From contig NC_043000.1 of assembly GCF_006345805.1 (NCBI RefSeq), positions 91,264,001 through 91,328,000 of the forward strand: 64,000 bases of DNA. Direction: 5' to 3'. Origin of the DNA: Octopus sinensis (taxonomy: Eukaryota). Below, one piece after another: positions 2,887 through 45,738 of this stretch. Below the pieces are notes generated by a model that saw nothing but the letters and a program-made list of their open reading frames with translations, made no database searches and was not told the DNA's origin. Made by a program: the position numbers and the translations under genes. How positions within the stretch are numbered: the first letter of the stretch is position 1; every line of letters begins with the position of its first letter.

Positions 2887-2934
2887 TAACCTCTGAAGTG
2901 TTCGGACGTGTTTTTTTGCTGCTCCAGATGAACG

Positions 2935-3530
2935 TTGTTTCAACGTGAATTGTTGAACTTTCGACTCGACTAAAGGTAGGAATTTTGTATTTTTGTGAGC
3001 GAAGTGAAGTTTTATTGCTTGCATTAATGTTTTTTAGCATTAAATATTTTTTAGCAGATAATAAGGCTCCACTTTGCTCCAGATATGATTTTTCTGCCTG
3101 TGTCGAGTGGAAAGAAAATTGTGTTGATGTCGCGTTGTTTCAACGTGAAATATTGAACGTTCGAATCGACTAAAGGTAGGAATTTTGTATTTTTGCGAGC
3201 GAAGTGAAGTTTTATTACTTGCATGAATGTTTTTTTAGCATTTAATATTTTTTAGCAGATAATAGGGCTCCACTTTGCTCCAGATATAGTTTTTCTGCCT
3301 GTGTCGTGTGAAAAGAAAATTGTATTGATGTCGCGTTGTTTCAACTTGAATTGTTGAACGTTCGAATCGACTACGGGTAGGCGTTTTATGTTTTTGCGAG
3401 TTTAGTGAAGTTTTATTACTTGCATGAATGTTTTTTAGCATTTAATATTTTTTAGCAAATAATAAGGCTCCACTTTGCTCCAGATATAATTTTTCTGCCT
3501 GTGTCGAGTGAAAAGAACTTGTATTTTTGA
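2935..3530 (+). repeat. Three tandem ~200-bp 5' UTR monomers of element B
   Basis: GTTGTTTCAAC(G/T)TGAA recurs at ~2934, ~3134 and ~3335, with near-identical sequence between. Confidence 0.9.
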
Positions 3531-5358: not shown

Positions 5359-7613
5359 TCTGAACTGTTCGGACGTGTTTTTTTGCTGCTCCAGATGAAC
5401 GTTGTTTCAACGTGAATTGTTGAACTTTCGAATCGACTAAAGGTAGGAATTTTGTATTTTTGCGAGCGAAGTGAAGTTTTATTACTTGCATTAATGTTTT
5501 TTAGCATTAAATATTTTTTAGCAAGTAATAAGGCTCCACTTTGCTCCAGATATAGTTTTTCAGCCTGTGTCGAGTGGAAAGAAAATTGTATTGATGTCGC
5601 GTTGTTTCAACGTGAATTGTTGAACGTTCGAATCGACTACGGGTAGGCGTGTTATGTTTTTGCGAGTTTAGTGAAGTTTTATTACTTGCATGAATGTTTT
5701 TTAGCATTTAATATTTTTTAGCAGATAATAAGGCTCCACTTTGCTCCGGATATAATTTTTCTGCCTGTTGTCGGGTGTGAAGAAAATTGTGTTTTTGAGG
5801 CGGCGTATTCCGTCTACAAAAATTATTTTTGAAATTGTCGTTGTGTTATCCACGGATTTACCAAGGATTATTTACCAAGGTGTTGTACCAAACATATACT
5901 TGGCCTGGAATACAATTTTTGGCTGAAAAAGTGAACAAAAAAAAAAAAGAAAAATTAATTCCTTTGCCTGATTTGAACTCTCTTTCTCCGTCTATCATTC
6001 ATTTGTAAAAAAAAAAGAACTTTTTTTGAACTGCCATTTTAACTTTTTCTTCCCTTCTGTTGCCATTTTCATTCTCCTTTCTGTGTCTAATTTATTTTGT
6101 AACATTTTGAACTGCTTTTTTTACGTTATGGCAAGGAATTTCACAGTGTGGGAATTAACACCTCCCAAAAAATATTTGAACGAACTTGAGGAAAAGACAG
6201 TGGTGCTGAGGACATATTCGAAGTCACTCGACACCATAATGGTCTTTCCGAAAGACACAATTATGAACGAGCTGGCAGACTATATGCCAGCCGTTAAACA
6301 TATTCAACGGGGAGCCAAATACGCAACGATTTGGTTGCTGTTTGACTCCCCTAAAGCAGCTTGCGATTTCGCGAGTAAGCCCATTGAGGGCGAAGATATT
6401 CTGTTTCTCCCAAGCTATAAGGGGGAAAAATTGATACGCGTATGGGTCTGCGGCCTGCCGCCCGGCTTTGAGCCTGAGTGGGTGGAAGATTCCATCCGCC
6501 GGGGTCTGAGTGGTGGTAGCGCCAAGATCCTAAACGTGAGAATGCAGCCTGCGGCTAACTGGAAAAGGGCAAAGGCTACTTTGACACTGTGGACCCAGTC
6601 GGCCAAGAGTCTGGTTTTGCCGGACTTCCTGAAGATGGCCGGGTCCAAGTATCCGGTGATGCTTGAGGGACGCGCTCCAAAGTGTCACCTGTGTTCGGAG
6701 ACCGGCCACATTAAGAAAAACTGCCCCAGGAACCAGAGTAGGATCCTGGAGAAGTTAATATCAGAGCCTCTCCCTGCCCCACCAATCGAGGGAGAGAAAC
6801 AAAGTGAGGAGGGGGAAAAAATCCTCCTCCAAAAGAAAAAGAAGTGTGGGGAGCAATGGCGACCCACAAAAGGAACCGGAGGCTGCGGAAGAAAAAGAGG
6901 ACCCGGTGCGTATAGCACCGGAACCTCAACCTCCCGAGGTCCAGCGTAAAAAGAAAAAGAGGAACGGAACGCCACCAGCGGACTGTAACACCCAGAGGGC
7001 GTCTCCCATGTGTCCTCCGGCGATTGTGATGCCGGAGAAATTTTACGTAGTCCTCTTCCATAAAGGAGGCACTATAGAAAATGAAATACGTAAGAGGAGG
7101 AAGAGAAACGAATGGGAGGGACTTCGGTCCTGCATGGAGTATCCCGAGTGGCCTTCGCAGCTGGCTGCGGAGGTCCTACTCGAAAATGATATGTGCAGGA
7201 TCGAGAATTCTTTCCCGGAGGATCTCTTGCAAGTCATACCTGTATGCGGAAGCCTGACGATGGACGATTGCGTCATTAAAGCAAGAGAGTTCATCGGTCA
7301 GGTAACGTAAAATTGTAATTGTGTTACATTGTGACAGAGGTTTATTGCCTCTGAAGAGACTTTTAAAAGTGTAAATTGCTAATTGAAATTTTTGTGAAAA
7401 TTTTTTGGAATTTTTTGAAATTTTTGTAATTCTTGAAATTTTGTAAAATATTGAAAAAAAAAAAAAAACATTGTTTTAGAGAAGCAAAAGTCGGCGGGCG
7501 CTTTCTGACTTCTCCCATCACCATATTCATCAATCACCACCATCATCCATTAATGTCCTTGTCCAGCCCGTAGCTACTCTTTGTGCTGCCCTTGTGGCAA
7601 ATTAAATGAAGTA
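5359..7613 (+). mobile_element. ORF1-only non-autonomous L1/Tx1-type retroelement, copy C (same family as B)
   Basis: Colinear with B end to end; two 200-bp monomers (~5401, ~5601); flanked by the 16-bp target repeat on both sides. Confidence 0.85.
6128..7310 (+). CDS. ORF1/gag-like CCHC protein of element C, with a +1 frameshift in the A run at ~6816-6821 (joins track ORFs 6026-6949 and 6804-7310)
   Basis: MARNFTVWELTPPKKY... aligns to B; CHLCSETGHIKKNC knuckle; removing one A gives EEGEKSSSKRKRSVG, colinear with B. Confidence 0.8.
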
Positions 7614-14578: not shown

Positions 14579-14781
14579 CGCGTGTGTACCGTTGGCGATT
14601 TTTTTCCTCCGTCTTCCCTTCTTTGGATCTTTCCTTTTCCTATGTTTCTGGCGAAACGCTCCGCTCGAAACGTTAAACCCTCCTTCTTTCCTTCTTTCCT
14701 GAGCGTCCAATAATACTATACTTGTTCCACGTCCTCGCGTTGTTGTGTTTTCTCTTTGTGTTTTCATGTTTAGATTAACTA
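14579..14781 (+). mobile_element. ~200-bp non-coding element with a degenerate minimal hammerhead (14644-14678)
   Basis: Near-identical to the reverse complement of 43871-44073; GTTT-CTGGCGA...GCTC-GAAA-CGTT-AAAC; TA-flanked. Confidence 0.7.
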
Positions 14782-14806
14782 TATATATGTGTGTGTGTGT
14801 GTGTGT

Positions 14807-16272
14807 ATCAAATGAAAATGGACAAGAAATCTAAAGCAGGACGAGTATCTCAGGTCTTTCTTTTAGAATATTTAATTAAAGTTAATAAAGCCAAAAATAG
14901 AGAAGTAGAAGTAATTAATGTCTTACAGCTGTTTCTGAGATATCCCAGGTGATGGTCCAACATCTCCATATACTGGGTACTCCATCATCAGAGACCCTGA
15001 ATTAGGTAAGGGCAAGTGCCGTAGTTTGTTCTGTATTTAATGACAGTTGGGTTAGGGATTTCTTTGTGTGTTTTTGCTCCACTGAGAATGAGTTTTAGTG
15101 TTTGGGACTGCCTTTAGCTTTTGATGATTTGTTGTTTTTATAAGATTTTTCTCATCTTTTCATCTGCAAATAAAATGGGGAGGTTTTTTGTGGATGTGAT
15201 CAAATATTTCGGTTCTACTGTGATTGAAGGTTGACATACAGTGTAAGACGTCTTTCCTTCTTTTGTTTTCCTAAGTTCATTGATACCCATTTGTTTTGCC
15301 TTGGTTATTCCGTTGGTGATTATACCAGGAGGGAAGGCTTCAGTTCCTCTAGTCTTGGTTCATGTTTGGATGTTTCTGACACTATGGTACAAATTCGTTT
15401 TGCCAGATTAAAAGGAATGTTGAGTTTGATGTGTTCCCTTTATATAAGTGGACTTTATAGTAGTTTGTGTCCATGATTACGACAGTGCTCACTTCCTCAG
15501 CTTCTTTGATAGTTATATTCGTATTTTCTTGTAAATCCAGTACGTTCTTCCATTCATGCTTTGTAAAGTTTGATTTAATGTTTCTGTATTCAATTTTTTC
15601 AAATGGAAATTTCATAATGTATTTGCAGTAGGAATCTAGTGTTTTATTTGAAATTTTATTTGGGGAAAAATTGCTTTTGATTCTGGCTAGTGTTTCGTCT
15701 TCATCAATAGAGTTGTTGGTGGAGTATTCGGCCAGCTTGATTTTTTGGCAGAATTCTGCAATGTCATGTTTTAGTTCGGGGAAGATTAGCCTTTGTGGTG
15801 TAGGTGTAAGCTTCAATCCCTTACTTAGAATTTCTATTTGGCGTGTCAGTTAATGGTTTTTTATAAAGGTTAATTACCTTTGGTTCCTAGTATAGTGGGG
15901 GAGCCAACGTGTGTCCTGGTATTTCTGACCTCGTGCAAAAAAATGATAAGTTACCTTGAGTGTAGTTGATATTTGTTGCTGGTCTATTTTGAGTGGTTAT
16001 TGTAGGGTCGTTTTTAATGGTGAGTGTGTTGAGGAAGGGGTCTGCTGTAGTTGCCTTTATGTTGTGGTCCTGTTGGGGTTCTGTGTGGTCGGGGTGGTTT
16101 AGGTGGGTCTCTTCCAAAGGCCATTGTGTTTATGATATAGTGATTGTCGTTCTAATGAGGGTACTTGTGGTTATATTTTATTCATGGTCCCAATGTAGCC
16201 CTCATTGATCCAGGTGCACCTCTTCCAAAGTTTAAAGTGCATATGTTATAACGTTGGTTTATCTCATTCCTT
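14807..16272 (-). mobile_element. Penelope-like element remnant with the RT core deleted
   Basis: GLKLTPTPQ...SNFTKHEWKNVLDLQENTNITIKEAEEVSTVVIMDTNYY (PLE N-terminus, degenerate ADKG motif) joins HIKLNIPFNLAKRICTIVS (RT thumb); hammerhead at the 3' end. Confidence 0.8.
14920..14995 (-). ncRNA. Type I hammerhead ribozyme
   Basis: Minus strand GUCU-CUGAUGA-[UGGAGUACCCAG...CUGGGAUAUCUCA]-GAA-ACAGCUGU-A-AGAC; palindromic helix III, GUA cleavage triplet. Confidence 0.8.
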
Positions 16273-16612
16273 GATATATATACATATATGTACCTATGTA
16301 GGTATGCATGAATGTGTGTATGTATATATAATTAATTAATAAGGGTGAAAGAATTAGATACTAATTTAATAGCATATCTATTCAACACCAAGTGGCCCAG
16401 TGCCTCGAGAAACCTGGATTATTATAATATTTTATAATATATTATAACATTTTATACAAAAATAAATATAAGAGAATGGTCACTATGTGGCTCATTCTAG
16501 CACTAGAAAATCCAAAAGGTTTCAACCACAAAAATACATGCTTCCTATGAAAGTCAGTACGATTGTTAGCCACACGAACAGGGCAAATAAAAAATAACAA
16601 AAATACAGATTA

Positions 16613-16694
16613 TTTTGGGACAATTGTTTCGCTATTAATGAATTAAATGTAATTTTACTTACAAAAAACCCAACTTGTAGCTCCTCAGCCAAAA
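16613..16694 (-). ncRNA. Type I hammerhead ribozyme, copy 1
   Basis: UUUUGG-CUGAGGA-GCUA...UAGC-GAA-ACAAUUGU-C-CCAAAA; all core nucleotides present, GUC triplet at 16621-16619. Confidence 0.9.
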
Positions 16695-17148
16695 CTATCT
16701 GGATGAAATCCACTCAATCACACGCCAGATTTTACCATAACGATAAATACATGTGTGGTTCAATTGATTACATCCGACGTTATAATTCAAATGCCCTTAC
16801 CAACAGCGCGCCAAACCTTCACGGAAACAAATACTACATTTAGAGATAAATGTAGCATAATTATAATTAATTAATAAGGGTGAGAGAATTAGATACTAAT
16901 TTAATAGCATATCTATTCAACACCAAGTGGCCCGGTGCCTCGAGAAACCTGGATTATTATAATATTTTATAATATATTATAACATTTTATACAAAAATAA
17001 ATATAAGAGAATGGTCACTATGTGACTCATTCTAGCACTAGAAAATCCAAAAGGTTTCAACCACAAAAATACATGCTTCCTATGACAGTCAGTACGATTG
17101 TTAGCTCACACGAACAGGGCAAATAAAAAATAACAAAAATACAGATTA

Positions 17149-17230
17149 TTTTGGGACAATTGTTTCGCTATTAATGAATTAAATGTAATTTTACTTACAA
17201 AAAACCCAACTTGTAGCTCCTCAGCCAAAA
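17149..17230 (-). ncRNA. Type I hammerhead ribozyme, copy 2
   Basis: Same sequence as copy 1; GUC triplet at 17157-17155. Confidence 0.9.
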
Positions 17231-17568
17231 CTATCTGGATGAAATCCACTCAATCACACGCCAGATTTTACCATAACGATAAATACACGTGTGGTTCAGG
17301 AGCTACAAGTTGGGTTTTTTGTAAGTAAAATTACATTTAATTCATTAATAGCGAAACAATTGTCCCAAAATAATCTGTATTTTTGTTATTTTTTTATTTG
17401 CCCTGTTCGTGTGAGCTAACAATCGTACTGACTTTCATAGGAAGCATGTATTTTTGTGGTTGAAACCTTTTGGATTTTCTAGTGCTAGAATGAGCCACAT
17501 AGTGACCATTCTCTTATATTTATTTTTGTACATATATATATATATATATATATACATTTATATATTTG

Positions 17569-17600
<32 letters not shown>

Positions 17601-20562: not shown

Positions 20563-21190
20563 ACCAAAGCATTTAGAGTGGAGTAAAAACCTACGGAATT
20601 GGTCCCTAGAACAGTAGAAGAATGTTATTTTCTCAGATGAGTCATCTTTACCGGCCGAGTATACATGTGGAGACAGCCAAAAGAAGCATTTGACCCAACT
20701 GTTAAACATAGAGGAGGATCTGTAATGATCTGGGGAGTGGTTGTATCTTGGAAATCCACTGGCCCAATGGCTTCCCTCATGGCAGAATTAATAGTCAAGA
20801 CTATTTATGCATTTTATCTGATCAAATTCATCCTATAGTTGTTGAACTGTTTCTGGAGGGAAACACAGTCGTTCAGGATAATAATGTACCGATTCACACA
20901 GCTAAAGTTATTACTGAATGGCATGAGCAACATTCTAGTGAAGTTGAACATCTTATCTGGCCACCACAGTCTCCAGATCTCAATATTATTGAACATTAAT
21001 GGTGCATTTTAGAAAACCAAGTAAGGAGTTGATATCCTCCACCATCATCACTACAAGGACTGGAGACTGTTTTAGCTGAAGAATGGACAAAAATTCCTTT
21101 GGAAATTATTCAAACTTTGAGTTCTTACCCCATATTAAAATAAACTTGTTTGAAATTTTAAGGTGTTTCCATTATTTTGTTAGATCCAGC
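20563..21190 (+). pseudogene. Tc1-type (DD34E) transposase remnant
   Basis: NVIFSDES, VKHRGGSVMIWG, VQDNNVPIHTAK, WPPQSPDLNIIEH, with stops and frameshifts. Confidence 0.9.
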
Positions 21191-39930: not shown

Positions 39931-40034
39931 TAACGACACGTGTTTCGTGGCTATATTTAAGAAATGATAATAGTAAAAATAATAGTAGTAGTAGTAAAAT
40001 CACTTCAATATATATATAGCCACTCTTCAGGTTA
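39931..40034 (-). ncRNA. Type I hammerhead ribozyme in an AT-rich element (~39768-40168) between (TA)n and (CA)n
   Basis: UAAC-CUGAAGA-GUGGCUAUAU...AUAUAGCCAC-GAA-ACACGUGU-C-GUUA; complete core, 10-bp helix II. Confidence 0.85.
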
Positions 40035-43634: not shown

Positions 43635-44073
43635 TAAAAAAACCCCAGAAAAAATGATAAATGCAAACAAACGTAAGGACATAGCAAAAGCAATAAGACA
43701 CTCAGAGAGAAAAAAGAATAGTTGTTTTACGTTTTGAGCAAAGCTCTTCTTCGGAAATAGGAAAAATAGGAAAGTCCAAAGGGAAGAACGAAGTAGGAGG
43801 AAAAACTGCAAACAGTCCACATGCGGTTACATACATATACATACACACACATATATATATATATATATATAGTTAATCCAAACATGAAAGCACAAAAAAA
43901 CACAACAACGCGAGGACGTGGAACAAATATAGTATTATTGGACGCTCAGGAAAGAAGGAAAGAAGGAGGGTTTAACGTTTCGAGCGGAGCTCTTCGTCGG
44001 AAACATAGGAGAAGGAAAGATCCAGAGAAGGGAAGACAGTGGAAAAAAAATCGCCAACGGTACACACGCGGTC
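43635..44073 (-). mobile_element. Two short hammerhead-motif elements (43635-43830 degenerate; 43871-44073 with the motif at 43970-44004)
   Basis: GUUU-CCGACGA-AGAGC-UCC-GCUC-GAAA-CGUU-AAAC; the other has CCGAAGA...AAAA. Confidence 0.7.
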
Positions 44074-44971: not shown

Positions 44972-45738
44972 ATTCTTCACCCGGGAGTTACGACACTGCT
45001 CTTACCAATTCCAACCAAACATACAATAATAATAATAATAGAAATAGTATTGATAATAGCAACATTCATAGCAGCGTTGGCATTAACAGTGGTAATATTA
45101 ATAATAATATTATTAACAGTGGTAGTGTTGGTGGTAGTAACGATAGCATTTATAATAACAGTGGTAATATTGATGATAACAACCCCAGCATTCCTATAGT
45201 CATCGATATTGCCGACGATAGTACAATTAATAGTAATGGCAATAACAGGAATAGTTTAATGGTCAATGCTAGCAATAATATTAACAGCAATCATAATAAT
45301 AAAAACTCCGTCTTAGTCTCGGAGGTAAACCCTAACAGATTAAAGTTCTTGTCCAGCAATTCTAAAATTAGAAATTCCATTTACCAGTGTAAAATTTCTT
45401 CCGGTACCGGTGTCTTCTTCTACATTGGGGCGACTACTTCTAAATTATCCCAAAGGATTTCCAATCATTATTCAACTTTCCGAGATAAGAGAAAACAACA
45501 AAGCACAGGACTAAGTAAATTAGTTTGGCGTCTTAAGGACAGCAATGTAACTTTCAAGCTGGAATGGTCCATATTGTCTGTATCCTTTCCGTTTGATAAG
45601 GGTACAAAATTTTGTGGCGTCTGTAATTCCGAACTTTTCCATATACTTTTCGCCAAATTCCCTTTTGTAAACACAATGGTAGAAAAATCCTATAGGTGCA
45701 TGCACTGGCAGAAACACACCTTTCACTCATATGAATGA
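44972..45738 (+). CDS. 3' part of a Penelope-like ORF: Asn/Ser-rich linker plus GIY-YIG endonuclease (5'-truncated)
   Basis: NSIYQCKI...FYIGATT...RISNH...STGLSKLVW.LK...CGVCNSE...N...E...CMH; frame is open upstream of the track ATG at 45259. Confidence 0.85.

Follow-up and report, generated by a model that had tools for sequence, protein, structure and literature searches.

A non-coding hammerhead repeat with two fixed ends in the octopus genome, likely written into (TA)n tracts by a Penelope-like enzyme in trans

The locus considered here raises the question of how a protein-free tandem repeat, carrying hammerhead ribozymes and ending in an inverted fragment, came to be inserted between TA-rich microsatellites. 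It lies in the window, by which we mean the whole 64-kb stretch of DNA analysed, within a 2.72-Gb microsatellite-rich eukaryotic genome. Both how animal retrozymes move and how Penelope-like elements (PLEs) make tandem copies with inverted ends are treated as open in the available parts of the literature (PMC7229834, PMC8557442, bioRxiv 10.64898/2026.07.22.740005).

The features of the locus are collected in Table 1. The original prediction described two near-identical units; the near-identity stands, with 6 of 437 columns differing in the alignment, and the count does not, as the array comprises 1.8 units. The inverted arm was correctly described as starting inside the ribozyme core, its first base being G7 of CUGAGGA, and a TA-rich microsatellite is reached on either side, as had been stated. 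Because both ends merge with (TA)n, the exact bases of the tail are uncertain by approximately 5 nt. No target-site duplication was discernible at the window locus (long-end flank). The unit is non-coding, low in GC (32%) and apparently without LTR organisation, and contains short frames only: the longest stop-to-stop frames within the array reach about 80 aa, and the 81-aa frame that was scanned gave no Pfam match, in line with the earlier claim of no real ORF. Likewise, no frame combining reverse transcriptase (RT) and GIY-YIG domains was found inside the arrays, which sets the repeat apart from an autonomous PLE.

Table 1. Features of the repeat locus in window coordinates.
Feature	Position	Strand	Details
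Hammerhead 1	17142..17237	-	Helix I 5' arm 17237-17225; CUGAGGA 17224-17218; long stem II 17217-17167
Hammerhead 1, remaining parts		-	GAAA; palindromic helix III 17163-17156; C17 17155; helix I 3' arm 17154-17142
Hammerhead 2	16606..16701	-	Sequence same as hammerhead 1; core 16688, C17 16619
Predicted 536-nt monomer between both cleavage sites	16619..17154	-	Release and circularisation putative
Full 536-nt unit	16763..17298	-	Unit position 1 = 17298
Partial second unit, positions 1-437 (436-437 nt)	16327..16762	-	Stops at long end, site A
Inverted arm, unit positions 79-309, 232 nt	17299..17530	+	Head-to-head with array; stops at short end, site B
Tail, ~130 nt from site B (unit ~305) to site A (~437)	16327..16458	-	On array arm, missing from inverted arm
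TA-rich microsatellite, long end	16274..16326	.	
(TA)n, short end	17531..17594	.	

Part of the unit is listed for 20 public sequencing runs from 12 studies, none of them entered as RNA. The family is real: contigs were examined for four of these runs, each belonging to a different study, and they extend over the unit and not over its flanks, none of them spanning the window locus. Three runs of unrecorded type were tentatively taken for RNA; their contigs, too, contain the unit, and cannot show transcription, strand or ends. Two X16 contigs end at 17160, at a distance of 5 nt from the cleavage site, and were not accepted as evidence.

A relaxed type I hammerhead scan of the whole window returned 5 matches, and a strict scan only two cores, both on the minus strand and with GUC sites 536 nt apart, exactly as first proposed. 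Either copy matches the core consensus CUGANGA/GAAA/NUH with CUGAGGA, GAAA and GUC, and helices I, II and III, with helix I open, are those of a type I hammerhead. The predicted extension of helix I is likewise present: GUUUUGG/CCAAAAU provides 7 contiguous pairs and grows to 13 positions with one A·A mismatch. The 4-bp base of stem II, GCUA/UAGC, closes a 51-nt insert between A9 and G12. Helix III, ACAAUUGU, is a self-palindrome in 8 of 8 positions; it can pair over 2 bp in cis and over 8 bp with a neighbouring copy, at predicted energies of approximately +1 kcal/mol for the intramolecular helix vs -6.4 kcal/mol for the 8-bp inter-copy duplex. The suggestion that this palindrome permits a double hammerhead gained support from modelling, since a dimer cut back to where helix I ends forms one in its predicted minimum-energy structure; in longer tandem contexts usually one of the two hammerheads is predicted to fold at a time. 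For the 536-nt monomer, the predicted circular fold (-133 kcal/mol, z = -3.7 vs 60 shuffles) has both helix I and stem II formed. Folding of a minus-strand read-through RNA that includes the inverted arm placed the first hammerhead in double-stranded RNA, with a predicted helix I probability of 0.0. As read-through would bury hammerhead 1 in this model, the locus is expected to release a monomer only if transcription begins at or after approximately 17298. The motif can be classed from its sequence as a conserved type I hammerhead, and self-cleavage after C17 is predicted. No hammerhead appeared among the best 150 of the 249 Rfam matches in the window, which were microsatellite or hairpin microRNA noise only, probably on account of the long stem II. 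Of 9 retrozymes predicted in Xenopus, 8 are reported in a preprint to have failed to cleave in vitro (bioRxiv 10.64898/2026.07.22.740005).

Other genomic copies, looked for as the original prediction had proposed, are numerous: a 22-nt core motif has 1647 exact matches in the genome and its reversed control none. The copies are dispersed over many contigs, and scaling from the sample on contig C1 leads us to infer approximately 600 insertions in the family. Two samples were inspected, together about 70 of these estimated 600. One was drawn in order of position from the first 100 matches of the core motif along contig C1, which resolve into 37 insertions once duplicated blocks are merged; the other consists of 34 best-hit loci. 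Two blocks copied along with their flanks, L112 and the second one of L106, were left out before counting, as were L015, L019 and L090 (repeats of L013), L257 (equal to L256) and L028 (ending in an N gap); L114 was merged with L113, and loci fetched twice were counted once (L002, L004, L005, L007, L008, L009, L017, L022, L026 and L030). Only arms of at least 42 nt are seen, and the end classes are broad (296-345 and 420-475) because BLAST extends into (TA)n. Blocks duplicated together with their flanks (L013/L015/L019, L106, L111/L112 and L256/L257) were noted as segmental duplication or assembly redundancy.

The combination of a partial tandem with an inverted end had been read as a PLE hallmark, and this holds across the family: 23 of the 37 C1 insertions are fold-backs, every one head-to-head, and the tail rule was kept. 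In 22 of these 23, one arm ends at A (~437) and the other at B (~305). The remaining fold-back pairs an A end with an arm reaching only to position 347, where it borders on unrelated sequence, and neither A+A nor B+B combinations occurred among the 23. The 14 single-arm insertions of the same sample divide into 7 with an A end and 7 with a B end, so that independent ends would make half of the fold-backs same-end; at even odds, 22 of 22 A+B has a probability of p = 2.4e-7. The best-hit sample behaved alike, with A+B ends in 17 of 17 fold-backs, next to 16 single-arm insertions and 1 complex locus. The window insertion obeys the same rule, its array arm ending at A and its inverted arm at B. 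This two-site end rule, which the original prediction had missed, is the most informative feature of the family. The inner 5' ends, by comparison, are scattered and do not accumulate around the cleavage site, as only 2 of 110 fall in unit positions 139-151. In 30 single-arm insertions, 11 of the 5' ends fall in AT-rich patches beside A and B (8 at 421-435, 3 at 294-322), which suggests microhomology joining to (TA)n. Target duplications of 12-37 bp were seen at L020, L076, L122, L123 and L077; judged by eye, about 5 of 70 loci are convincing.

A head-to-head inversion is also produced by L1 twin priming, where both target ends prime cDNA synthesis; there the second site is generally described as variable and the arms as non-overlapping, whereas in the window family both sites are fixed and the arms overlap. 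A further parallel is found in PLEs. Their insertions consist of partial tandems plus an inverted copy, often with a 30-40 bp tail on one end (PMC8557442, PMC3846280). One PLE has been studied as a purified protein: it prefers AT-rich DNA, of which it cuts and extends either strand, its tail is delimited by two internal start sites of the RT, and it is predicted to form a dimer (PMC11167929). As far as these papers could be consulted (PMC11167929, PMC8557442, PMC3846280), the octopus repeat shares with PLEs the partial tandem with head-to-head inverted copy, the one-end extension, the AT-rich targets and the two internal end sites. It differs in lacking a reading frame, in a tail of ~130 nt as opposed to the published 30-40 nt, and in the one-each use of the ends, which is strict in our counts and 'optional' or 'often' in the sections available. 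PLEs of the Hydra clade, as described in the accessible part of PMC8557442, additionally share (TA)n targeting and a canonical hammerhead.

The same end rule recurs in related and unrelated sequences of this genome. A 546-nt sister family (56% identity to the 536-nt unit, alignment score 279 vs 175 ± 14) has a tail of ~85 nt; 24 of its loci, chosen by their long end, include 9 fold-backs, and a second long end is absent from all 9. Two homologous families keep the 7-bp helix I, pairing with different sequences. A very abundant Hydra-like PLE family (16738 first-look candidates) has its ends ~50 and ~205 nt past the cleavage site and hence a tail of ~150 nt; long and short ends are combined in 6 of 7 of its two-hammerhead loci, 1 being unscorable, and 0 of 15 inverted partners are long. 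Sister retrozyme families and a decayed older copy were encountered at L242:5155-5700 (-), L202:2340-3160 and L241:380-820 (-), all with a GCGCGC...CATTTGAA block upstream of the hammerhead that could be a promoter or a protein-binding site. Further hammerhead repeats occur in the window itself. One at 40030 (-), with a 77-nt stem II insert and an 8-nt palindromic helix III, lies between (TA)n tracts and belongs to another family with a relative in L028; the copies at 44000 (-) and ~14600-14800 belong to a common repeat that has a minimal hammerhead and only 2 nt in the loop of helix III, C4 replacing U4 in the 44000 copy.

The one-each end signature is that of Penelope-type retrotransposons, which makes it likely that the repeat is copied by a PLE enzyme, and its recurrence in the sister family and in Hydra-like PLEs makes PLE mobilisation likely as well. 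We therefore hold with good confidence that this is a non-coding 536-nt repeat with two fixed ends that is likely written into (TA)n by a PLE RT-endonuclease acting in trans, probably on circular RNA. By analogy with the purified enzyme, sites A and B would be its two RT start sites, one for each target end. The following course of events may be envisaged. A tandem array would be transcribed, and adjacent hammerheads, as in the predicted fold, would pair through the palindromic helix III and cut, giving a 536-nt monomer that, like the retrozymes of coral, mussel and axolotl, may be ligated into a circle. Both strands of AT-rich DNA would receive a staggered cut from a PLE protein, which is likely dimeric (cf. 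the target duplications at a few loci). Each 3' end would then presumably prime reverse transcription at B or at A, one site per target end, to give the observed pattern. The resulting cDNAs, of variable length and often running past the cleavage site several times, would be joined head-to-head, or a single cDNA extending far would leave a single-arm insertion. More tentatively, and with less than even confidence, we suggest that a Hydra-type PLE dimer holds one ribozyme-made circle at two sites 130 nt apart, one for each target end, and that two rolling-circle reverse transcriptions meet head-to-head.

For an arm to run past the cleavage site many times, the template must be a circle or an uncleaved multimer, or the enzyme must jump repeatedly. 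It is possible, though on the whole we think it unlikely, that the same PLE machinery with its two start sites uses an uncleaved multimer transcribed from a small number of source arrays, or jumps on a linear monomer, circles being a by-product or absent. Arrays of at least 14 units could serve as sources (L071 has 14 that are full or near-full), and subsets of units share some variants. According to the available text of PMC11167929, moreover, uncleaved RNA is the dominant template of the green anole PLE and the hammerhead is dispensable in vitro, so a circle is not required. Such a template does not, however, readily explain that arrays start near-homogeneous. The difference between units is 0.9% within an arm and 0.8% across arms, the arms thus being equally close, vs 3.5% between loci, and two loci are 0.0% divergent over 4-6 pieces. 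It is also at odds with private variants found in every unit of both arms (L102 7/7, L088 6/6). A total of 11 locus-private variants (majority allele) are common to both arms in 9 of 40 loci; 3 private variants are fixed in one arm only, all in L088. Most within-locus variants are singletons (167 of 205), with 30 shared within one arm and 8 shared across arms by some units only. The partly shared 30 + 8 suggest that some duplication or conversion took place later, or that templates were heterogeneous, and the overall pattern fits one template per insertion followed by decay and some reshuffling. By our judgement, array homogeneity makes a circle roughly twice as probable as its alternatives. 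A further point against an uncleaved template is that the core stays intact while N7 drifts: the hammerhead core is intact in 214 of 225 family pieces, N7 being G in 38, C in 29 and T in 1 of 68 loci, and 11 core sites are invariant in 34 of 34 loci not selected on the motif. The comparison of core and helices with the rest of the unit is marginal (0 of 39 vs 36 of 495 variable sites), and an uncompensated C·A mismatch in helix I was scored in 10 of 68 loci, a count in which compensation could be missed because loci entered the C1 sample by a match on the partner strand. The window copy, described as young in the original prediction, is not the youngest, as its within-arm distance is 1.2% vs a family median of 0.9% and 0.0% at some loci.

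Two other readings depart further from a circle copied in trans. The repeat could be the terminal pseudo-LTR of an autonomous PLE that was not found, the arrays being 5'-truncated copies; this we consider improbable. A decayed PLE frame does lie 70 nt past the long end on the same strand, and truncated partial tandems are normal in PLEs (PMC8557442, available text), but that frame is old, its next-best relative having 71% aa identity, carries its own hammerhead at 14991 and is separated from the repeat by a microsatellite. In addition, the unit repeats head-to-tail at least 14 times without intervening coding sequence, and among the ~70 of ~600 insertions inspected PLE fragments stand at unrelated distances and in unrelated orientations to other arrays. 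Still less credible, to the point of being very improbable, is a minisatellite spread at the DNA level by unequal crossover and fold-back repair, with the hammerhead an inherited relic, or a local assembly artefact. Some blocks (L106, L111/L112, L013/L015/L019) were indeed copied together with their flanks, and a 2026 preprint proposes local amplification in its accessible text (bioRxiv 10.64898/2026.07.22.740005); spread of this kind nevertheless cannot account for two fixed ends used one each, variable inner joints and dispersal over many contigs. That no contig from the four public runs bridges the window locus would suit an artefact, whereas the coverage of the unit in four runs of four studies and the 6 sites distinguishing the window units do not.

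The PLEs of this genome were surveyed for a possible partner. At 14800-16260 (-) the window holds a decayed Neptune-like PLE fragment with a GLKLTPTP motif, frameshifts and an internal deletion (frame ~15140-16260); its hammerhead has a palindromic helix III, and the same hammerhead type is found in L175. It was rejected as the element's own coding part on the grounds given above. L076 was rejected as an autonomous copy, since its arm stops at site A with unrelated DNA beyond. Several Neptune-like families (L051-L070, L161) retain intact frames of 772-883 aa, most with RT and GIY-YIG (linker motif), and have tails of 35-38 nt; most carry U3/A8 hammerhead variants, which escape a CUGANGA scan, and some of these loci have an upstream frame of 360-500 aa without Pfam match. 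These families were not accepted as homologous to the unit: beyond AT-rich sequence, they have at best a terminal CACCC motif in common with it. The Hydra-like family has an intact 787-aa frame with asparagine-rich inserts (L236:2000-4360, +), and the endonuclease end of such a PLE, 76% identical to that frame, lies in the window at 45154-45735 (+). The L236 frame gave no Pfam RT match and no significant match to P0001 (E = 0.24); its clade was assigned from motifs (DKT and YRDD, a CxxC next to E, and CCHH not observed) together with an Atlas look-alike, and should be taken as putative. Its hammerhead has a C3/G8 core, a 54-nt stem II insert, an 8-nt palindromic helix III and a GUC site, the same build as in the unit, with no sequence similarity between the two families. 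No coding element sharing the unit's sequence was found among 88 RT/GIY-YIG and 75 Hydra-like loci, a small share of thousands of candidates, and the only non-AT-rich unit matches in these loci are separate family fragments (L064, L241, L202). In consequence a partner can be proposed from build and not from homology, and the best candidate, at about even chances, is the Hydra-like PLE.

The repeat itself fits an element class already known, the animal non-LTR retrozymes. Like those in the accessible text of PMC7229834, it is a non-coding, low-GC tandem with one type I hammerhead per unit in dimers to multimers, the short helix III of the axolotl retrozyme similarly suiting dimeric cleavage; it is also dispersed and multi-copy, and its duplications, when present, exceed 4 bp. 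The retrozymes described there are 150-450 nt long, in contrast to 536 nt with a 51-nt stem II insert, fold-backs and two fixed ends here, and expression and circles, which have been demonstrated for them, are predicted for the octopus family. The words 'inverted', 'rolling' and 'microsatellite' were absent from the main text of that paper as available, and 'tail' from that of the preprint (bioRxiv 10.64898/2026.07.22.740005). With two consecutive units and complete hammerheads, the window repeat falls under the preprint's definition of a 'putatively active retrozyme', its unit length lies within the 51-972 bp range given there, and PLEs co-occur in both. The preprint's own link to PLEs, to the extent that its text could be consulted, is co-occurrence and pLTR homology, mainly in vertebrates, whereas the link made here is the insertion signature, pLTR homology not having been found. 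PLE mobilisation of retrozymes was proposed in the accessible text of both sources (PMC7229834, bioRxiv 10.64898/2026.07.22.740005) without a signature at the level of insertions. A search of open-licence papers and bioRxiv found no report of the octopus family or of tails or fold-backs in retrozymes.

A protein-free element with the two-site signature of PLEs ties retrozymes to PLE enzymes by mechanism, beyond co-occurrence, and the strict one-each rule predicts that the two priming events are coupled. If the reading of a dimer holding one circle at two sites is true, PLE tails, inverted ends and retrozyme arrays would come under one mechanism, and the PLE clade that carries a given retrozyme could be read from the tail length.

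Elsewhere in the window, tandem repeats of ~200 nt occur in two places (2933-3525 and 5400-5790) in a GC-richer, skewed region, and frame fragments with a WPPQSPDLN motif at 20700-21010 (-) resemble a Tc1/mariner transposase.
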